Assembly: GCA_028711065.1 (NCBI GenBank)
Contig: JAQTSY010000002.1
Location: 73,779-137,778, forward strand
From: Minisyncoccota bacterium
Lineage (GTDB): Bacteria > Patescibacteriota > Minisyncoccia > Phycocordibacterales > JAQTLZ01
Direction of reading: 5' to 3'
DNA length: 64,000 bases
Shown here: positions 26,330 through 48,201 of the stretch, piece after piece
Numbering within the stretch: position 1 is the first letter of the stretch
Layout of the letters: every line of letters starts with the position of its first letter
The notes under the pieces: model-generated
What the model saw: only the letters and a program-made list of their open reading frames with translations
The model's database searches: none
What the model was told of the DNA's origin: nothing
Translations under genes and position numbers: made by a program

Positions 26330-26674
26330 TTAAATTGCTTTCGCAACAAGTTTCTTCATTGTTTCAGGATGAAACTCGATAAGGTCTGCCATAATCTTTC
26401 GGTCAACCATAATGTTTTTCTTTTTCAAAGCACCAATGAATTTGCTGTATGAAGAACCGTTTGCTTTGAGGTATGCGCCGATCTTTACGTTCCAGAGCAT
26501 TCGGTAATCATTCTTCTTATCTTTTCGGTGAGCGAATGAGTATTTTCCAGCGTGATAGAGAGCTTCATACGCTGCTCGCTCATTTTTTGAACGTCGAAAA
26601 CGATATCCTTTTACTTGTTTGAGGACATTTCGTCGTGTCTTCAGTGCATTTACTCCTTTCTTTACTCTGGTCAT
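26330..26674 (-). CDS. rplT: 50S ribosomal protein L20
   Basis: 114 aa matching L20. Confidence 0.93.
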   Translation of the reverse strand: MTRVKKGVNALKTRRNVLKQVKGYRFRRSKNERAAYEALYHAGKYSFAHRKDKKNDYRMLWNVKIGAYLKANGSSYSKFIGALKKKNIMVDRKIMADLIEFHPETMKKLVAKAI

Positions 26675-26686
26675 TTCAGTATCGAA

Positions 26687-26875
26687 TTATCCGATAATAA
26701 ATCTAGCCCTGTCTTTGTTGCTAATAGGGAATGGGAAATCAGCTCCTCGGCGCTTTGCCATTTGAGCTCGTCGTGATTCTTTCGCGTTAAAGTGGTTTTG
26801 GCCCGCTTTTCGAGCAGTAATTTTGCCGTTTTTGCTCACTTTTAAGCGCTTCATGTATGACTTGTTTGTCTTCAT
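26687..26875 (-). CDS. rpmI: 50S ribosomal protein L35
   Basis: 62 aa basic protein upstream of rplT. Confidence 0.85.
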   Translation of the reverse strand: MKTNKSYMKRLKVSKNGKITARKAGQNHFNAKESRRAQMAKRRGADFPFPISNKDRARFIIG

Positions 26876-26937
26876 GTATAGGGCAGTATCCTACAGGAAT
26901 AAGGCGAATTTGTCCACTTTTGAGCCATGAAACAGCA

Positions 26938-26967
26938 CTTGACTTTTTGGCTATATATGTGATATAA
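26938..26967 (+). promoter_or_regulatory. sigma70-like promoter TTGACT-N18-TATAAT upstream of the DGR target gene
   Basis: Consensus hexamers. Downstream is a 12-bp stem hairpin (TCGCCATAGCCA...TGGCTATGGCGA) at ~27040-27092. Confidence 0.5.
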
Positions 26968-27094
26968 TAGCGATAGTTTAGAACCTTAAAAAAGCAAAGG
27001 AAATCAAGTCGCCATAGCCACAAGTGCCCGCAAGCCGGACGTTTCTGGCTATGGCGAAAATGATCGCCCACTAGCAAATTCAAAAGGCGCAACA

Positions 27095-27742
27095 TTGTTC
27101 GTAAGAACTGTTGCATACAAGGAGGATGACGCCGTGGATAAAACCATGACCCCGTCCGAGAGCATCAGCACCGGAAAGATCGGCAAGATTCAGGAACTTC
27201 TGGGAGCAGGGCTTCGCAAGTCGGGATTGCCCGACGGTCCGGTTCAGAAAGTGCTTGAGCATCAGGGCGACGCGCTCACCACAGAACTCGTCGCGGTGAT
27301 CCGAAAGTTTGTCGAAGCGATCGGCGAGATGTTCTCGCGCATCGTCAAGGTGAACCGCAAGCGCACCCCGAAAGAGGCGCTCAAGGCCACCGGCCGTAAA
27401 CTCTACGTCAACGACGACGTGGTGGAAGCTATGCCGCGCGGCGAAGGTACCGAAACGGAGGTTCACTTCTTCAAGGTCGGTAAGTATTTGACTGACGAAG
27501 AACTCGACAAGGAATACGAACTCCGCGGGCTCAAACCCGCCGATCCGTACTCCGTCGCCGCGGTGAACGAAGCTGATCCTGCCTTTGCCGATGAGAAGCC
27601 CAACGGCACTCACTGGAAAGACAAAGACGGTAAGTGGTGTTTCGCGGCGTTCAATCGCTGGCGCGGCGAGCGCAGGGTGGGCGTGGACCGCGACGACGAC
27701 GGCTGGAGTGGCCACTGGTGGTTCGCCGGCGTCCGCAAGTAG
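27095..27742 (+). CDS. DGR target (variable) protein; GC-rich (~58%) relative to the genome; VR at the C-terminus; probable start GTG 27134 after AAGGAGGA
   Basis: The C-terminal 97 nt match the downstream template repeat except at template adenines. Confidence 0.8.
   Translation: MFVRTVAYKEDDAVDKTMTPSESISTGKIGKIQELLGAGLRKSGLPDGPVQKVLEHQGDALTTELVAVIRKFVEAIGEMFSRIVKVNRKRTPKEALKATGRKLYVNDDVVEAMPRGEGTETEVHFFKVGKYLTDEELDKEYELRGLKPADPYSVAAVNEADPAFADEKPNGTHWKDKDGKWCFAAFNRWRGERRVGVDRDDDGWSGHWWFAGVRK
27640..27736 (+). repeat. DGR variable repeat (VR)
   Basis: 97/97 alignable with TR 28093-28189. There are 14 mismatches, every one at a TR adenine (VR has G or C). A GC-rich IMH-like 3' end (GGTTCGCCGGCGTCCGC) is followed by hairpin CAAGTAgcacttcgTACTTG. 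Confidence 0.85.
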
Positions 27743-28092
27743 CACTTCGTACTTGCGACACTTCGCACTTTTGGATCCTTTGTCCTTTGTTCGCAAAACG
27801 CTTTTGGAAGATACGCGTCAAACTTCCAGCCCGGTACATCTGTATCGGGTTTTTTCGTGCTAAAATAAAGACGGCTGTAGGTGAATATGCAGAAGATTAC
27901 GATTTTCTGCTGCCGAAACCAGTATCCGCAAGTTGAGAGCGTCTGCGATCACGGTTTCAGACGGAGGACTTGCGAAGACACTTCACAAAAAATGAAGCTA
28001 CTTGGTATAAAGTGTTAGGGCATTTCGATGCCGGATACGATACAACCTTGAGAGTATTCAAGAGGTGGTGACAAAGAAGGCATTTTATACAA

Positions 28093-28189
28093 TTTCGCGA
28101 CGTTCAATCGCTGGAACGACGAGCGCAAGGTGAACGTGAACCGCAACGACAACAGCTGGAATGACAACTGGTGGTTCGCCGGCGTCCGC
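28093..28189 (+). repeat. DGR template repeat (TR), rich in AAC codons
   Basis: See VR. A hairpin CTCTCCTACttttGTAGGAGAG lies downstream. Confidence 0.85.
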
Positions 28190-28607
28190 TACTCGCTTCG
28201 TTTCTCTCCTACTTTTGTAGGAGAGTTTCGTTTATCCCGAGCATTGTCGAGGGATTTGGAGAGTTGTCCGCTCCAACCACCGAGCATTTTGCCGATCTCT
28301 TCGATTTTTAGGGAAAGAGCGATGTATTTTTTGTTGTCGATCGACTTTGTTTCCCAGAGAACCATCACTAATATTTTCAGAGTGTCTATTTTTCGCACAG
28401 CCAGACGCACGTAGGGAATTTTTTCTTCACGAGAAAGAAACGTCGCAATACTGATCGCTTCTATGCTTTCGACAAACAGTGAATCAACCCTTTGTCCGAG
28501 GGAATGCCGATGGGCTTTCGGCAGGATTTGATAGTAGCTATACCAAAGGATATAAACATCTTTTATTTTCTGGAGAAGTGGAAGAAGCTTTGCGGGGGGG
28601 GGGGCAT
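28189..28607 (-). CDS. avd: DGR accessory variability determinant (Avd; four-helix-bundle / 23S rRNA IVS-protein family). The reading frame is interrupted by a G11 (C11 on the coding strand) homopolymer at 28594-28604
   Basis: The C-terminal 73 aa (listed ORF 28189..28410) and upstream in-frame residues (...LGQRVDSLFVESIEAISIA...KIEEIGKMLGGW) match the four-helix-bundle IVS/Avd family. The ATG at 28605-28607 is in frame only if the tract were 12 nt. The 419-nt span is not a multiple of 3. Confidence 0.6.
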
Positions 28608-28638
28608 AGAGGCTTGAGAATTCATGGTGTAATATGTT

Positions 28639-29652
28639 TTGATGCTGAAAAAACTTGATAATGCATACGACAATATCATATCTTTGGAAAATTTACTTTT
28701 AGCATGGCAGGAGTTTTTGAGCGGGAAGAAGAAGCGAGAAGATGTGCAAGAATTCGAGCGAAATTTGATGCAAAATCTTATTTCACTTCATTCCGATCTT
28801 TCCGCGAAAACATATCGTCACGGAGCATACCATTATTTCGTCGTCTCTGATCCGAAACGGCGCGATATTCATAAAGCGACTGTCCGCGACAGGATAGTGC
28901 ATCGAGCAGTCTATCGAATTTTGTATCCGTATTTTGATCGGAAATTTATTCCTGATTCGTATTCTTGCCGGAATTTCAAAGGAACGCATCGAGCACTCGA
29001 TCGCTTTCGGGATTTCGGGAGAAAAGTTTCCCGAAATCACACTTGCACCTGTTGGGTCTTGAAGTGCGATATCCGCAAGTTTTTCGCTTCGATTGATCAC
29101 AAAACGCTTTTTACAATTTTGGGAAAGCACATTTCGGATGCAGATACGCTTTGGCTTTTGCGAGGAATTGTCGGCAGTTTTCATTCAAAAAGAGAAGGTG
29201 TCGGATTGCCACTTGGAAATTTAACTTCGCAACTTCTGGTGAACATTTACATGAACGAATTTGATCAATTCGTAAAGCATCGACTGAAAGTAAAATATTA
29301 CATTCGCTACGCTGATGATTTTGTTTTTCTCCACGAGGACAAAGCTGTGCTTGAAGAGCTTTTGCCGAAGATTGGAGATTTTTTGGAAGAGAAATTAGAA
29401 CTTTCTTTGCATCCCGACAAAGTGTTTATTAAAACATTTTCCTCTGGTGTGGATTTTCTCGGATGGATGCACTTTCCGAATCATCGAGTATTGAGAGCAG
29501 CGACGAAGCGAAGAATGATGAGGACTATAGAAGCGAAAAAAGGAAAAACAGAGACCCTTCAGTCTTATCTTGGGCTTTTATCTCACGGGAATACAAAAAA
29601 ACTGCAGAGAAAAATACGAACCATCAACTTGGAAGCTTGGCTTCCAAGTTGA
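28639..29652 (+). CDS. DGR reverse transcriptase
   Basis: RT motifs with the DGR-diagnostic LPLGNLTSQLLVNIYM in motif 4 (group II introns have QGxxxSP). YADDFVF in motif 5. No maturase or endonuclease domain. Confidence 0.85.
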   Translation: MMLKKLDNAYDNIISLENLLLAWQEFLSGKKKREDVQEFERNLMQNLISLHSDLSAKTYRHGAYHYFVVSDPKRRDIHKATVRDRIVHRAVYRILYPYFDRKFIPDSYSCRNFKGTHRALDRFRDFGRKVSRNHTCTCWVLKCDIRKFFASIDHKTLFTILGKHISDADTLWLLRGIVGSFHSKREGVGLPLGNLTSQLLVNIYMNEFDQFVKHRLKVKYYIRYADDFVFLHEDKAVLEELLPKIGDFLEEKLELSLHPDKVFIKTFSSGVDFLGWMHFPNHRVLRAATKRRMMRTIEAKKGKTETLQSYLGLLSHGNTKKLQRKIRTINLEAWLPS

Positions 29653-29655
29653 TGG

Positions 29656-30246
29656 TCAAACCTTTGGTGCGGGGTTTTCCGGTTTTGGCACGATCGGAGC
29701 TGCTGCAGGAGCTTTTTTAGCTAAAAGAGTCTGCACCCCGCCTGTTCCTTTTTCGACAATGATGGTGATACCTTTGGGACTCTTTGTTGGGCCGTCGGCG
29801 ATTCTAAATTCTTCGGTGATGAGCATGAGGATGCGGTTCAAGCGTTCTTTGAGGAAATTAAAATCCATGTATTTTGCCCGGCCGGAAAGGAAGAGGTCGA
29901 TTTTTATTCTATGACCTTCTTTGAGCCACTTACTCGCATTTTTCGCTTTCAAATTGAGGTCGTGGTCTCCAGTGCCTATTTTCACTTGGAGTGTTTTCAT
30001 CTCGATGATATGCATTTTCGACTTCGCGACTTTCGCTTTTTTATTTTCGTCGTATTGATATTTTCCGAAGTCAGTAATTTTGGCTACAGGAGGTACTGCG
30101 GTAGGGGAGATTTCTATAAGATCGAGTCCGAGCGCCGCTGCTTTATCCATCGCGTCTTTAAAAGAGATAACGCCAAAATTCTCGCCTTCGGGACCGATGA
30201 CGCGTAGTTCTGCCGATCGTATTTGATGATTAATTCTAGCTTTCAA
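29656..30246 (-). CDS. infC: translation initiation factor IF-3 (C-terminal A/P-rich tail)
   Basis: IF-3 N- and C-domains. It lies upstream of rpmI-rplT on the same strand, separated from them by the DGR. Confidence 0.9.
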   Translation of the reverse strand: MKARINHQIRSAELRVIGPEGENFGVISFKDAMDKAAALGLDLIEISPTAVPPVAKITDFGKYQYDENKKAKVAKSKMHIIEMKTLQVKIGTGDHDLNLKAKNASKWLKEGHRIKIDLFLSGRAKYMDFNFLKERLNRILMLITEEFRIADGPTKSPKGITIIVEKGTGGVQTLLAKKAPAAAPIVPKPENPAPKV

Positions 30247-37276: not shown

Positions 37277-38908
37277 ATGAACAAACCAAAATTTTTCTTA
37301 TACGCGCGAAAATCAACGGAGGACGACGATCATCAGATCATGAGTATTGAAGCGCAACTTTTTGAGCTTCGAGAATTCGCGCGTAAAGAAAATCTTGAAA
37401 TTCTGGCTGAATTTCAAGAGTCGAAAAGCGCAAAGAAACCGGGTCGTGAACTTTTTAACGAAATGATGGCCCGCATTGAAACTATGGATGGTGTCGGTAT
37501 TCTCGCATGGCATCCTGACCGACTTGCTCGCAATAGTGTGGACGGCGGACGCATCATTTACGCTGTAGACACGACCAGAATCGTTTCTTTGCGATTTCCG
37601 ACATTTTGGTTTGAACCCACTCCGCAAGGGAAATTTATGTTGCAAGTGGCGTTCGGCCAGTCCAAATATTATTCAGACAATCTCGTTGAGAATATTAACC
37701 GAGGTATCCGCCAAAAAGTGAGAAGAGGCGAATGGCTGGTGAAAGCTCCGTTTGGCTATGTGAATAATCCGAGAACGAGGAATATCGAACCTGACGCGGT
37801 GAAATCACGCATTGTGGTCGGAGCTTTCAAAGAGTACGCCACTGGCAAGCATTGTTTCGGATCACTTTCGGCATTTTTGGCGGATAGAGGTGCTGTGACG
37901 AGATACGGAACGCCACTTGCCAAAGCTTCCGTCTCGATTATGTTGTCGAACAAAGCATATCTCGGTCTGGTCAAACATCGCGGTGAATTTTTCGCCGGAA
38001 GCTTTGCGCCAATTCTTTCTCTCGACTTGTTTGAAGCCGTACAGAAGATTTTGCGAGAACGAGCAAAGCCCCGCAAAACAAAAACCGGTCACAATTTTCC
38101 TTTCACCGGACTTTTTCGTTGCGGAGAATGTGGAAGCATGATTACCGCTCAATGGTGCACCGGAGAACATGGCGGACGCTATCGCTACTATCGCTGTACG
38201 AAAAAGAAAGGAAAATGTGAACAGAAGTATTTGCGGGAGGATGCGCTCGCCTCGCAGGTGAAAGCACGGCTCAAACAAGTCGGACTTCCCGACGACTGGA
38301 CCGACTTTATGCTAAACAAAGTGCAAGATTGGGAGAAAGTGGAAAAAGTGTCGTCGGGAAGCCTTGTCGAGCGGATTAAGGAGAATGAGCGAGAGACGGA
38401 ACAAAAGCTCGGGAAGCTCGTCACTTTGTTTCTGGACGGCGATATTCCCAAAGAAAATTATCTCGCCAAGAAAAACGAGCTTTTGAAAGAAAAGGTGTCT
38501 CTCGCTCAAAAAATGGATTCCGCCCGACAAGAGAGAAAGAATTGGGTCGAACCCTTGCGAGAGTGGATTTTAGATACGAAAAAAGCCACGCAATTGGCTT
38601 CGTCCGATAATTTTGAAGAAATGCGGACATTTCTTCGCCGAGTCGGAACGAACCCAAAATTGCGGGACAAATCCGTCTCTGTCTCATTTTGCCCACCCTC
38701 CGAATTCGCTTGCGGGCGCAGGGCGGAATGCGGGTTCACCGGAGATCGCGCGCCTTCGGCGCGCTCAAATTTTTTGCTCCCTGAATCGGAAGTCTTAATA
38801 TGTGGAGACGGCGGGAATCGAACCCGCGTGCAAGAGGTTTCCTTGAATGGTTCTACAAAGGGTAGTTTATTTTTTCCGCTTTCGCGGATTTCGAACTCGT
38901 CCGTCTAG
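37277..38908 (+). CDS. large serine recombinase (resolvase/invertase catalytic domain + recombinase domain + Zn-ribbon + coiled coil). The ORF has no stop before IR-B and reads through it into the tmRNA gene; the functional C-terminus is probably near 38690
   Basis: N-terminal YARKSTEDDDHQIMSIEAQ (catalytic Ser) and C-terminal CGECG...C zinc ribbon. ~50% identity to the second recombinase at 46645-48201. Confidence 0.85.
   Translation: MNKPKFFLYARKSTEDDDHQIMSIEAQLFELREFARKENLEILAEFQESKSAKKPGRELFNEMMARIETMDGVGILAWHPDRLARNSVDGGRIIYAVDTTRIVSLRFPTFWFEPTPQGKFMLQVAFGQSKYYSDNLVENINRGIRQKVRRGEWLVKAPFGYVNNPRTRNIEPDAVKSRIVVGAFKEYATGKHCFGSLSAFLADRGAVTRYGTPLAKASVSIMLSNKAYLGLVKHRGEFFAGSFAPILSLDLFEAVQKILRERAKPRKTKTGHNFPFTGLFRCGECGSMITAQWCTGEHGGRYRYYRCTKKKGKCEQKYLREDALASQVKARLKQVGLPDDWTDFMLNKVQDWEKVEKVSSGSLVERIKENERETEQKLGKLVTLFLDGDIPKENYLAKKNELLKEKVSLAQKMDSARQERKNWVEPLREWILDTKKATQLASSDNFEEMRTFLRRVGTNPKLRDKSVSVSFCPPSEFACGRRAECGFTGDRAPSARSNFLLPESEVLICGDGGNRTRVQEVSLNGSTKGSLFFPLSRISNSSV
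38691..38805. repeat. IR-B right copy, abutting and overlapping by 5 nt the 3' end of the tmRNA gene
   Basis: See IR-B left. The terminal core CTTAATATGTGG includes tmRNA 3'-terminal nucleotides. Confidence 0.9.
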
Positions 38909-39197
38909 AATAAACAAAACCGAACGTGTTCTAGTCTCATTGGCTTTTGGCCTTCAAGTACGGCTCGAGACTGTCCATACTTTATCCCGAAAAATGACAC
39001 TTCACATTCCTCTATCGGGAAGTCGAAGAGGGAAGCGTCGCTTAGGCTATCGCGTAAGCGAAATCGTTTGCTCCAAAATATGGAGAAGCGATCTTTTGTG
39101 CAACTTTTGCAGTTGACTTTTGAAGCGGATTTAAGAGTCACTTCAGCTCTCCTTTGCACATACGAAGGGGAATCTCCTGTCTATGCCGATCATCCCC
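38803..39197 (-). ncRNA. ssrA: tmRNA (ssrA), predicted tag peptide ANDFAYAIA
   Basis: 5' end GGGGAUGAUCGGCAUAGACAGG resembles the tmRNA 5' consensus. The tRNA-like 3' end is GGUUCGAUUCCCGCCGUCUCCACA. The 5' GGGGAUG pairs with 3' CGUCUCC (two G-U pairs). The internal ORF GCA AAC GAT TTC GCT TAC GCG ATA GCC TAA begins with the characteristic AND. smpB lies immediately upstream on the same strand. Confidence 0.75.
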
Positions 39198-42376: not shown

Positions 42377-42453
42377 TGGTCCACCCTCCACGATTCGAAC
42401 GTGGGACCCCCGAGGTATAAGCTCGGTGCTCTAACCAGCTGAGCTAAGGGTGG
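42377..42453 (-). tRNA. tRNA-Ile with anticodon UAU (encoded CCA; discriminator A)
   Basis: Manual cloverleaf fold: acceptor CCACCCU/AGGGUGG, anticodon stem CCGAG/CUCGG with loop CUUAUAC, T-loop UUCGAAU. Confidence 0.7.
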
Positions 42454-46166: not shown

Positions 46167-46389
46167 TACCGATGCCCGAGTGGAGAAATCTGCTCGGGTG
46201 TTTTTTTTGCGGAGGAAGTGAAAATTTCGGTCGTTACACGACCAGTAAAGGCGAGATTCGGTCACAAGTATTTTTCTGCTGAAAAATCTCGCGACCCCGA
46301 CTCAGCACCCATGCGCTTCCGTCTTTCGAATCTCACTTCCTCTCGCAACGTCAAACGAAAAAAGATTTTCAATCTTTTGTCGGTCATTG

Positions 46390-46476
46390 CGGAGGAAGTG
46401 AGATTCGAACTCACGGAGCCAATTAAGGCTCGGCGGTTTAGTAAACCGCTGGTTTAAACCACTCACCCATTCCTCC
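46390..46476 (-). tRNA. class-II (long variable arm) tRNA-like gene with a non-canonical anticodon loop (UUACUAA, apparent anticodon ACU); possibly tRNA-Ser-derived or a pseudo-tRNA
   Basis: Manual fold: acceptor GGAGGAA/UUCCUCC, 3-bp D stem, D-loop GAGUGGUUUAA, variable arm GAGCC..GGCUC, T-loop UUCGAAU, discriminator G. No standard Ser or Leu anticodon was found. Confidence 0.5.
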
Positions 46477-46609
46477 AGGTTTTCTAGTCTAGCATAAAGC
46501 TAAAGACGGAGGGAGTTTCTAAATGGCTCAACAGTTTTTCTCTTCGATTTATACTCTGCTCCGTACTTATGGAGAAAAGCGAAAAAATATGTTACTCTGT
46601 TTGAATTCT

Positions 46610-46698
46610 GGAGACGTGTCAGAGTGGTCTAACGTACCTCTTTGCTAAAGAGGCAGGGGCTTTAAACCCCCTCGAGGGTTCGAATCCCTCCGTCTCCG
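46610..46698 (+). tRNA. tRNA-Ser (anticodon GCU), class II
   Basis: Acceptor GGAGACG/CGUCUCC, anticodon stem-loop CCUCU-UUGCUAA-AGAGG, long variable arm, T-loop UUCGAAU, discriminator G. Confidence 0.8.
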
Positions 46699-48201
46699 CA
46701 TTTGAGAGAATTCGGGTTCCGCGAAAAAAATCGGGTCGGCGCGAAGCGCCGATGTGTGGAGTGAACCCCCGCCAAAACAAAACCCGCCAAGGATTTTCCA
46801 CGCTCCGCGGGGCTCAAAAAGTACGGTTCGATCTTTGATTTCAAAGTTCGAACCGACTTTTTTCAACAAATGAAGTTTTTCTTCATTTGTTGCATCGTTT
46901 GCCAATTCCATATTGGATTTGAGCCACTGGTCCGTAAGTTCGAACCGATTATTCGCTTTTTGCTGAAATGCCGATAATTTCTCTTTGAGAAGCTGTTTAG
47001 CGTTAACCAGTGCGTTCTTGGCATCGCGATATTCTTCGAGCGACAACGCACTCTCAAGATACGCGCTCATCAGCTTCTCAATCTTGGAATCCACAAGAGA
47101 AATTTCGGCTTTCACGCTATCCGCAAAAAGCACACTCGATTGATTTTCTGATTGCCGATCTTTTTCATTCTCGGCAATCATCCACTCTAGCCAATCGAGT
47201 GGCAGAGAAACTTTTTTGATCTTCTCCTGAATTTGGGAAGTGATGAACTCCTCGCGGACATATTTTTGCAAACAAGGATTTTTCCGTTTGGTACAGCGGA
47301 GATAGTTATGACCTTTCTGGGTTTCGGTTGTGATGAAGCAACCGCATTCTCCGCAACGGAAAAATCCTCGGTATAAATATTCCTTTAGACCGCGAGCTTT
47401 CGGCTTGCTCTTTCTTTTCATCACTTCCTGGCAAGTATCAAAAAGTTTCTTTGAAATAATCGGTTCGTGCTTACCCTCGTATATTTCACCACCGAAGCGA
47501 ATCAGTCCGCAGAAAATCGGATTTTTCAGCATATTGTGAATGTCCGAAATGGAAAGTTCATGCTCCTTTCTCGTTTTCAGTCCAAGTAGAGCTGTGATGT
47601 CCCTAACTTGTCGGAGCGTATATTTGCCACTGGAGTAGGCCTCGAACGCTTTTGCAATACACGGCGCACGCTCGGCATCGGGGAAGATAGTTTTTGTCTC
47701 GGTGTCGTTCACAAATCCGAGCGGCGCATTTCGAGGCCAAATACCTTCCTTCAATTTCTGACGATGGCCGCGTTTAATATTCTCCGACAAGTTATCTACA
47801 TAGTACTTGGACTGACTAAAAGCGATTGAGAGCATGAATTTTCCTTGCGGTGTCGGATCAAACCAAAAAGTACTAAATTTCAAATCTAGAATCACTTTGG
47901 TATCAACGAGGTAGATGATTTTTCCTCCATCTACCGAGTTTCTCGCAAGTCGATCAGGATGCCATGCCAAAATACCGGACGCTTCTCCGTGTTCCATTCG
48001 TCCTATCATTTCGTTGAACACGGGACGGCCCGGTATTTTGGCTGTCTGCTTTTCGACAAAGACATCGACAATTTCAATCCGCTCTTTCAACGCTAATTCT
48101 TTCAATTCCGAAAGCTGGTCGGCAATACTGCGGACTTGTCTGTCTTTGTCGTCTGTCGACTTGCGAGTATAGATGAAGAACTTTTTGGTTTGAGAATTCA
48201 T
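46645..48201 (-). CDS. large serine recombinase (paralogue of 37277-38908). The ORF reads through IRrec into tRNA-Ser; the functional C-terminus is probably near 46816
   Basis: N-terminal YTRKSTDDKDRQVRSIADQ and C-terminal CGECG zinc ribbon. It is transcribed toward the tRNA 3' end, exactly as in island 1. Confidence 0.85.
   Translation of the reverse strand: MNSQTKKFFIYTRKSTDDKDRQVRSIADQLSELKELALKERIEIVDVFVEKQTAKIPGRPVFNEMIGRMEHGEASGILAWHPDRLARNSVDGGKIIYLVDTKVILDLKFSTFWFDPTPQGKFMLSIAFSQSKYYVDNLSENIKRGHRQKLKEGIWPRNAPLGFVNDTETKTIFPDAERAPCIAKAFEAYSSGKYTLRQVRDITALLGLKTRKEHELSISDIHNMLKNPIFCGLIRFGGEIYEGKHEPIISKKLFDTCQEVMKRKSKPKARGLKEYLYRGFFRCGECGCFITTETQKGHNYLRCTKRKNPCLQKYVREEFITSQIQEKIKKVSLPLDWLEWMIAENEKDRQSENQSSVLFADSVKAEISLVDSKIEKLMSAYLESALSLEEYRDAKNALVNAKQLLKEKLSAFQQKANNRFELTDQWLKSNMELANDATNEEKLHLLKKVGSNFEIKDRTVLFEPRGAWKILGGFCFGGGSLHTSALRADPIFFAEPEFSQMRRRRDSNPRGGLKPLPL
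46696..46815. repeat. IRrec copy a (120 bp; 119/120 identical to the reverse complement of 48220-48339), starting at the last 3 nt of tRNA-Ser
   Basis: Direct comparison. It contains GC hairpin GGCGCGAAGCGCC and GAATTCGGG. It is homologous in layout and ~60% in sequence to IR-B of island 1. Confidence 0.9.

Follow-up and report, generated by a model that had tools for sequence, protein, structure and literature searches.

Diversity-generating retroelements (DGRs) have been catalogued by the thousands in CPR bacteria (Patescibacteria), and most of them are built alike. The order TR-(avd)-RT, designated architecture B3, is found in 90% of the DGRs of CPR bacteria (Wu et al. 2018, PMC5758913), which are treated as DGR clade 2 by Roux et al. 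2021 (PMC8144416). These elements are cellular and chromosomal, lie among translation genes, and some of them contain ribosomal protein genes (Wu et al. 2018, PMC5758913). Their targets are small, carry the VR at the C-terminus, and have no recognizable Pfam domain, signal peptide or transmembrane segment. The DGR of Bordetella phage BPP-1 (mtd-avd-TR-brt) has all of its genes on one strand, and its functional RNA (Rfam motif RT-10) reaches from avd across the TR and into the 140-nt spacer that precedes brt. Phase-variable contingency loci, such as the poly-G tracts of Campylobacter, the tetranucleotide repeats of Haemophilus and those of Neisseria, are also pertinent to the element described here. 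In these loci, a repeat in the 5' coding end gates a surface antigen or a restriction system.

Here, we describe an element found in the window, the whole 64-kb stretch of DNA that was analyzed, which derives from a Candidatus Paceibacterota MAG. It is a genuine DGR of the known Patescibacteria type, ordinary in itself, and adds one further example to those catalogued. Its TR-(avd)-RT core order, its avd gene on the reverse strand and its CPR host are those of B3; a reading made earlier from the sequence alone had called this order atypical, but it is the standard one for CPR DGRs. The chromosomal setting, the translation-gene neighborhood and the small target are likewise shared, and at the level of membership nothing sets the element apart from its CPR counterparts. 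With BPP-1 it has in common adenine-specific mutagenesis, a TR rich in AAC codons, a GC-rich IMH with a hairpin after it, Avd, an RT with the SQ motif, and a variable protein with a (modeled) C-type-lectin fold. In contrast to BPP-1, avd here is antisense and overlaps the end of the TR, the TR is flanked by a different three-helix domain (5') and a terminator hairpin (3') that match neither RT-10 nor any other Rfam entry, the host is a bacterium where BPP-1 is a phage, and the target is something other than a tail fiber. The 5' end of avd, in this element and in more than 100 relatives, bears a simple repeat that looks like an on/off switch for the mutator.

The target gene and the TR/VR pair

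The target gene, the two repeats and their flanking signals are arranged as follows.

26939 to 26968, plus strand: strong sigma-70-like candidate promoter of the target (TTGACT, 18-nt spacer, TG-n-TATAAT)
27134 to 27742, plus strand: DGR target gene, 202 aa, start GTG at 27134, 8 nt after AAGGAGG (alternatives ATG 27146 and TTG 27095)
27640 to 27736, plus strand: variable region (VR), the final 32 codons ahead of the last Lys codon
27714 to 27736, plus strand: IMH-like GC-rich 3' end of the VR, the same as the TR end (IMH*); the copies diverge beyond it
27734 to 27757, plus strand: hairpin or cruciform candidate, 8-bp stem and 8-nt loop, overlapping the target stop codon
27828 to 27857, plus strand: intrinsic-terminator-like hairpin and T run, the putative end of the target transcript (sequence scan)
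28093 to 28189, plus strand: template region (TR), 24 adenines

Re-alignment reproduced exactly what the sequence-only reading had reported for this pair: VR and TR align without gaps over 97 nt, the TR has A at all 14 mismatches, and the VR has G (12) or C (2). That 14 of the 24 TR adenines, and no other TR bases, are changed in the VR has a hypergeometric P of 7e-11, and every mismatch falls at codon position 1 or 2. The template is AAC-rich, as had been stated, with 6 AAC codons, 2 AAT and 3 GAC among its 32. The same signature recurs in 50 related loci, where 738 of 753 mismatches lie at TR adenines. No second VR is present in the 64-kb window, in which the TR end matches itself and the VR only.

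The 23 nt of identity at the VR 3' end, with divergence thereafter, constitute an IMH/IMH* pattern; with BPP-1 as the model, this stretch would function as the IMH. The hairpin that was said to follow it is present (CGCAAGTA-N8-TACTTGCG; dG -15.1 for a 57-nt segment, z -3.1). It is not a family-wide feature, the mean z being -1.2 across the family and the same in orphan copies. Two sibling assemblies show no sequence differences in the VR, and an exact 53-mer of the target gene matched no contig of the JGI metagenome collection. In L040 and L043, two strains with elements of the same family, the VR differs at TR-adenine positions.

The target had been read from the TTG at 27095. The GTG at 27134 is the most likely start, given its spacing from AAGGAGG, and the resulting 202 aa agree with the NCBI record. 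The protein has no signal peptide, as had been noted, nor any transmembrane segment, and it matches nothing in Pfam or NCBIfam. In its structural model, a helical hairpin at the N-terminus precedes a C-type-lectin fold, one of the two folds that had been anticipated, and the VR forms the C-terminus of this predicted, variation-tolerant fold. In a sigma-70 scan, the promoter matches 11 of 12 consensus positions and has an extended -10 element, and it would presumably drive the target gene.

The TR RNA

Three further elements flank the TR.

27975 to 28004, plus strand: conserved block AAAAAATGAAG(A/C)TACTTGG, upstream of the TR-RNA domain and near-invariant in 36 loci
28005 to 28090, plus strand: predicted structured 5' domain of the TR RNA (P1, 28005-16 with 28079-90; P2, 28019-23 with 28028-32; P3, 28045-49 with 28062-66)
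28204 to 28235, plus strand: conserved hairpin (9-bp stem) and U run, 14 nt 3' of the TR and antisense to the avd 3' end

The TR sits within a discrete predicted small-RNA unit, with a covarying three-helix domain before it and a terminator hairpin after it. A covariance model of the 5' domain matches the window at 27973-28106 with 135 bits; across independent loci, 95% of cells are paired, and compensatory changes occur in 21 of 23 pairs. The hairpin, with covarying stems, recurs at almost all of 46 loci and at 50 of 53; it would act either as the terminator of the TR RNA or else as an element recognized by the RT. The conserved block is probably the promoter of this RNA, judging by its conservation; a sigma-70 scan gave no clear promoter for the TR RNA, the RT or avd. 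No Rfam family matched the TR flanks at the gathering threshold or at E <= 1. The defined unit of roughly 230 nt, predicted to span 28005-28235, offers a compact and well-delimited template RNA for the biochemistry and engineering of DGR-based mutagenesis.

The reverse transcriptase

The RT gene extends to the right edge of the cassette.

28642 to 29652, plus strand: DGR reverse transcriptase, 336 aa
29619 to 29657, minus strand: infC terminator, 18-bp hairpin and T run, overlapping the RT 3' end and marking the right edge of the cassette

The RT matches Pfam RVT_1 and contains YADD and LGNLTSQ, the latter of the [I/L]GxxxSQ form that marks motif 4 of DGR-clade RTs; the motif GNLTSQ had been correctly recognized. 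Among PDB entries the enzyme matches 8ub7_A best (E 2e-49), a reverse transcriptase chain of 328 residues, with group II intron RTs at 1e-22. We take 8ub7 to be the Bordetella (BPP-1) DGR RT, which would make that enzyme the closest solved relative of the one in the window. An exact look-up of the window RT returned nothing on record.

The avd gene and its repeat

[quoted passage not shown]

28189 to 28593, minus strand: avd body (four-helix-bundle accessory protein), its stop codon overlapping the last TR base, the Avd frame open
28594 to 28604, either strand: G11 homopolymer (C11 on the avd strand), which sets the avd ATGs at 28625 and 28607 out of frame
28605 to 28625, minus strand: avd 5' leader (MNSQASM), out of frame, with these two ATG codons

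Homology to Avd on the minus strand, as claimed earlier, is borne out by Pfam bAvd (1.3e-11; score 45.3, cut-off 40) and by NCBIfam DivGenRetAVD (E 6e-18), although the latter's score of 65 lies below the curated cut-off of 80. What that reading missed was the G11 run and, with it, the frame offset between avd and its start codons. In the assembled sequence, avd lacks a canonical in-frame start upstream of GTG 28410, and the element may consequently be silent at present. A tract of C12 or C9 would restore the frame. The G11 run is the sole G/C run of at least 8 in the 64-kb window.

Simple repeats occupy the 5' end of avd in 111 related loci, and they include G6-15, (GA)n, (GT)n, (CTGG)n and others. 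An upstream ATG is in frame with avd in 34% of these loci. In 70 of the 111, a TTG, GTG or ATG in the Avd frame stands just after the repeat, where it may provide a downstream start; in the window, as at 28 other loci, no start codon stands there. VRs, G runs and two small clusters account for all the differences between the near-clonal strains L040 and L043: the run is G11 in the former and G9 in the latter, between flanks that are 100% identical. Repeat length differs in one of three near-identical groups and is the same in the other two. The two sibling assemblies have identical G11 runs; since their VRs are identical as well, neither current diversification nor length switching is seen in this genome.

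Discussion

The reading of this locus as a DGR is supported by the adenine-specific TR/VR pair, the DGR-like RT, the Avd homolog, the IMH-like end and the predicted C-type-lectin fold of the variable protein. We consider it very probable, as an explanation of the whole, that this is a chromosomal DGR of a Patescibacteria-specific lineage, with the order target-TR-(avd)-RT and a lectin-fold target, whose avd repeat would be a switch, here assembled in the OFF state.

The proposed mechanism begins with a short TR RNA, which would be transcribed from its own conserved upstream block and in which the three-helix 5' domain would be followed by the 97-nt TR, a linker of 14 nt and the terminator hairpin; both ends of this transcript are placed by analogy. 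The RNA domains may serve to recruit RT and Avd. As in BPP-1, RT and Avd would then copy the TR into cDNA, misincorporating opposite adenines, and at the target gene's 3' end the cDNA would take the place of the VR. At least 14 codons could be rewritten in this way on the presumed ligand-binding face of a small lectin-fold protein. Slipped-strand changes in the conserved repeat would switch Avd on or off, and mutagenesis with it. The adenine specificity of the pair, the homologies of RT and Avd, the modeled fold, the covarying RNA structure and the diversification between near-clonal relatives are the parts of this scheme that are shown; the cDNA and homing steps follow the phage model.

It is extremely improbable that TR and VR are an ordinary duplicated segment, diverged by chance or gene conversion, beside an RT from some unrelated group II intron or retron. 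Nothing but the presence of a repeat speaks for such an origin, and it is refuted by the restriction of mismatches to adenines and to the first two codon positions, by the 50 loci with the same pattern, and by an RT to which 8ub7_A is far nearer than group II or retron RTs are, in a locus without intron RNA domains or an Rfam match. Decay of a true DGR accounts for more of the data. The 14 A-specific differences could record past activity, with avd now a frameshifted pseudogene and the cassette a fossil; avd without an in-frame canonical start and a VR identical in two assemblies fit this idea, and loss does occur in the family, where about 30 out of 80 related target genes lack any RT or avd in their vicinity, and RT fragments alone remain at some loci. 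Yet we find decay improbable: RT, TR, RNA domains and Avd body are intact, with the Avd frame open, and a single 1-nt slip restores avd. Further, the "lesion" lies exactly within a repeat conserved across more than 100 loci, two thirds of which are likewise out of frame, a pattern not expected of random decay.

The repeat may also be kept for a reason other than phase variation at the DNA level. Transcriptional or ribosomal slippage could set a low, constant supply of Avd, or the repeat could belong to the divergent promoters of RT and avd as a 5'-UTR element or spacer, in which case Avd would start downstream of it. RNA polymerase is known to slip on runs of nine or more. On the RT strand, the repeat sits 20-40 nt upstream of the RT start and is strongly G-rich; L043 has a similar G run directly upstream of a TATAAT box; and the canonical codons after the repeat at 70 of 111 loci would allow a downstream start. 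We nonetheless regard these possibilities as rather doubtful, because di- and tetranucleotide repeats, the classic units of DNA slippage, occupy the same spot in other loci, because the repeat is followed by no start codon in the window and at 28 further loci, and because length differs between near-clonal strains.

The position of the repeat, the 34% of loci in frame and the near-clonal difference in G runs point instead to phase variation. On balance, we lean toward a built-in stochastic switch, in which the SSR (G11) makes Avd phase-variable and confines hypermutation to a subpopulation of cells, and in which the TR acts as a terminator-ended small RNA with its own three-helix domain, of a family absent from Rfam 15. 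The assembled copy would then be OFF, one inserted base from ON. The parallel with contingency loci extends to unit lengths that are not multiples of three, unit types that differ by lineage at the same position, about one third of copies in frame, and lengths that differ between near-clonal strains. In contrast to the surface antigens and restriction systems gated there, the gene presumably switched here encodes a cofactor of a targeted hypermutation machine. It is an open question for DGRs how cells keep down the cost of continually rewriting a gene. If our proposal is true, a slippery repeat that gates Avd, the cofactor, would answer it in a simple way that is both heritable and reversible.

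This repeat is apparently undescribed. The literature searched, with the original CPR survey (Paul et al. 2017) outside its scope, mentions no repeat at the avd 5' end, no RNA domain 5' of the TR, no terminator hairpin after it and no GC-rich target; within the same scope, nothing relevant was found that links DGRs, avd or Patescibacteria to SSRs, homopolymers or phase variation.

The composition of the target gene is a separate matter. Its GC is 0.60, and its GC3 is 0.75 versus about 0.42 in neighboring genes, an elevation that holds across the family; both A3 and T3 are depleted. Run-on of cDNA from the VR is rejected as the cause, as GC3 is flat (0.60-0.68) along the gene, with no gradient toward the VR. 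An antisense ORF (27080-27796, 238 aa) that spans the whole gene is an artifact: synonymous-codon shuffles leave this frame open equally often, and across 80 loci the observed values equal those of the controls. A GC-rich and strongly promoted target hints at a very abundant, cytoplasmic-looking lectin-fold protein in these tiny cells, and very high expression may account for the GC3 of 0.75.

Results and Discussion

Identity of the retroelement

The cassette at about 26876-29655, between rpmI-rplT and infC, is a diversity-generating retroelement (DGR), as the sequence-only reading had proposed; both the observation and its interpretation stand. Its features, and those of its borders, are as follows.

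26330-26875, minus: rpmI-rplT
26939-26968: strong target promoter, upstream of the target (11/12 consensus matches, extended -10)
27134-27742, plus: target gene
27640-27736, plus: variable region (VR)
27734-27757: hairpin with an 8-bp stem, overlapping the target stop codon
27828: target terminator, downstream of the target
28093-28189, plus: template region (TR)
28204-28235: hairpin and U run with covarying stems
28593 to 28189, minus: avd frame
28594-28604: G11 on the plus strand (C11 on the avd strand), between the avd ATGs and the Avd frame
28642-29652, plus: reverse transcriptase (RT; Pfam RVT_1 match)
29656-30246, minus: infC, which shares an 18-bp bidirectional terminator with the RT

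The 3' end of the GC-rich open reading frame (27640-27736) aligns without gaps to 28093-28189 over 97 nt. There are 14 mismatches, and the TR base is adenine at all 14, the same counts as in the sequence-only reading; the VR base is G at 12 of them, C at 2 and T at none. The TR holds 24 adenines, and the probability that every mismatch would hit one is 7e-11. All 14 fall at codon positions 1 or 2. Translated in the target frame, the TR contains 6 AAC, 2 AAT and 3 GAC among 32 codons, in keeping with the AAC richness noticed earlier. The final 23 nt of VR and TR are GC-rich and identical, with divergence beyond (the IMH/IMH* pattern), and the hairpin said to follow the VR end was recovered at 27734-27757. 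Only two copies of the TR end, those of TR and VR, exist within the 64-kb window.

This signature extends to the family. Across 50 related loci with a detectable TR, TR adenines are the site of 738 of 753 mismatches, and the substitutions are A->G in 63%, A->T in 21% and A->C in 16% (p = 3e-60 versus equal shares). Because A->G dominates in these loci, the G bias of the window's VR is a family trait. It may reflect a misincorporation preference of the RT, selection for the amino acids that result (Asp, Gly, Ser, Arg), or both.

The nearest solved structure to the RT is 8ub7_A (a 328-residue reverse transcriptase chain; E 2e-49), which we take to be the RT of the Bordetella DGR; group II intron RTs matched at 1e-22. 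The GNLTSQ motif, described beforehand as DGR-specific, aligns as LGNLTSQ, as does YADD. The proposed minus-strand Avd homologue is borne out by a Pfam bAvd match above cut-off; the NCBIfam DGR-Avd model matches at E 6e-18, with a score under its cut-off.

The gene order had been called atypical, a view that must be abandoned. The order TR-(avd)-RT is "architecture B3", which makes up 90% of CPR DGRs (Wu et al. 2018, PMC5758913) and is thus the usual order among these bacteria. Further, a cellular DGR clade restricted to Patescibacteria has targets without recognisable domains (Roux et al. 2021, PMC8144416). The window element belongs to this known kind and, as a DGR, is ordinary for Patescibacteria. 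The moderate interest of the locus arises from three lineage-wide features of which we could not find a description: a repeat that would gate avd, a defined TR-RNA module and a GC-rich target.

Distribution and genomic position

A scan with one genome per species yielded 80 loci with a target homologue (the first set). About 45 of these share one layout, in which the TR (+) lies about 340 nt past the target (+) and is followed by avd (-) and RT (+). In about 30 (L004, L009, L012-L015, L019, L023 and others), the target gene stands alone: the 10 kb that follow it contain neither TR nor avd nor RT. Some loci (L002, L006, L045, L078 and L030) retain an RT fragment alone. The orphan genes may be frozen relics, or a DGR elsewhere in the genome may act on them in trans. 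The position of the cassette is not conserved, since relatives carry it elsewhere, e.g. beside secE-nusG-rplK or rplS. In L009, infC and rpmI-rplT are contiguous.

A simple repeat at the start of avd

The avd frame of the window is open, but, as assembled, its first ATG, GTG or TTG comes no earlier than codon 62. Two ATGs lie upstream (28625 and 28607) in a different frame, beyond the C11 run, and a run of C12 or C9 would put them in frame with Avd. The G11 tract is the same in an independent assembly and is the sole G/C run of at least 8 in the 64-kb window.

Among 47 avd loci of the first set, 40 have C7-C12 at the same position and 4 have (CA)n, (CCAG)n or (CCAA)n; masking or a contig end hides the site in the other 3. 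A second set comprises 80 metagenome loci that were retrieved by their RT, and in most of them the target belongs to a different family. A repeat at the avd start is present in 67 of the 72 assessable here: G7-G15 in 52, (GA)n in 12, and (GT)12, (TC)17 and (CTGG)9 in one each. An ATG precedes the repeat in 111/111 loci and is in the Avd frame in 38 (34%), which is what random phase would give. Two near-clonal strains, L040 and L043, share 99.45% identity over 9 kb. The VR of the window-type DGR differs between them, nearly always at TR-adenine positions, and so do the avd G run (G11 versus G9), a second G run next to a TATAAT box, the VR of another DGR of canonical type, and two small clusters. 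Two other near-identical groups have no repeat-length difference.

We infer that the conserved repeat is a slipped-strand, phase-variable switch on Avd. Another possibility is that it serves as a site of transcriptional slippage, or has a promoter or 5'-UTR role; an Avd start downstream of the repeat is possible in 70/111 loci, and 29/111, the window among them, lack a canonical start on the stretch from the repeat to the Avd core. No mention of a repeat at the avd start was found in the literature that could be searched, to which Paul et al. 2017 did not belong.

Besides the avd run, the contig of these two strains has two more G9-G10 runs (L043 12525-12533 and 14373-14382; L040 3404-3413 and 5253-5262). 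The first, whose length differs by 1 nt between L040 and L043, directly precedes the TATAAT box of a gene for a secreted protein. The second lies 13 nt ahead of the ATG of avd in the other, canonical DGR, which has all its genes on the plus strand and a target of DUF1566-like type. In such genomes, poly-G switches may often accompany DGRs and surface proteins.

A structured TR RNA

The TR is preceded by a conserved stretch of about 90 nt with a three-helix fold. Its long-range helix, P1, has 12 bp and stops 2 nt short of the TR; P2 and P3 are hairpins. Compensatory changes affect 17/23 pairs in the first set. A covariance model built from that set has exactly one match in the window (27973-28106, 135 bits). 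It also matches once in each of 55 loci from the second set, in every case on the RT strand and 5' of the TR. In these independent loci 95.1% of cells are paired, versus 72.6% in shuffles and 30-54% with partners slid, and 21/23 pairs have compensatory changes. Directly after the TR come a conserved linker of 12-14 nt and then the hairpin with U run, which is encoded antisense to the avd 3' end; nearly all of 46 loci have this hairpin, as do 50/53 loci. The TR flanks match no Rfam family, the RT-1 to RT-19 motifs (Weinberg et al. 2017) included. These elements suggest that the TR RNA is about 230 nt long and ends at a terminator; its flanking domains would recruit RT-Avd and set the cDNA limits.

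The GC-rich target gene

The target protein matches no Pfam or NCBIfam domain. Its family comprises at least 978 patescibacterial proteins with lengths of about 200 aa, and when 29 of them are aligned, variable columns concentrate at TR-adenine codons. Inspection of the sequence shows no hydrophobic segment at the N-terminus of the target and hence, as previously stated, no signal peptide. The start is likely GTG 27134, 8 nt beyond AAGGAGG, in agreement with the 202-aa NCBI record MDD5050376.1, whose Candidatus Paceibacterota MAG is the source of the window.

The gene has a GC of 0.60 and a GC3 of 0.75, versus a GC3 of 0.38-0.46 for RT, avd and neighbouring genes; this GC3 is 4.9 SD over the 63 window ORFs (about 0.42). 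Target GC exceeds that of the flanks in 72/74 related loci (mean excess 11.8 points), and orphan copies, which lack a neighbouring RT or avd, have the same excess. RT and avd of the same cassette have host-like GC. A cDNA run-on gradient was rejected as the source, because GC3 is flat along the gene (up to 0.80 in the VR, with third-position A at 1-3%), and an overlapping antisense gene was tested and likewise rejected. The guess that we favour is that the gene is very highly expressed and its codons are under strong selection to end in C, an explanation that the strong promoter and Shine-Dalgarno sequence would fit.

The untranslated regions hold further motifs. The mRNA leader (about 160 nt, downstream of the promoter) contains an 11-bp inverted repeat, TCGCCATAGCC...GGCTATGGCGA (27009-27060), with no Rfam match. 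The 3' UTR beyond the VR (27743-27810) is dense in CTT(N1-2)G(G/A/T), e.g. CCTTTG, ACTTTG and CTTTGGA; in the 90 nt past the target stop of 82 loci it occurs 3.2 times per 90 nt versus 0.78 in shuffles, and orphan target copies have it too.

Two independent Logan contigs (sibling runs), 100% identical to the window, both begin at 26815, inside rpmI; the shorter stops at 27963, short of the TR, and the longer at 28676. Their common break points may be branches of the assembly graph, which would mean strain variation, close to the edge of the cassette and ahead of the TR. Elsewhere, the window encodes a tmRNA (tag AQKIASPYFGANDFAYAIA), tRNA-Ile(TAT) and two tRNA-Ser genes (38800-39197, 42377-42453, 46389-46699); these are ordinary housekeeping genes, in line with a Paceibacterota genome of small size.
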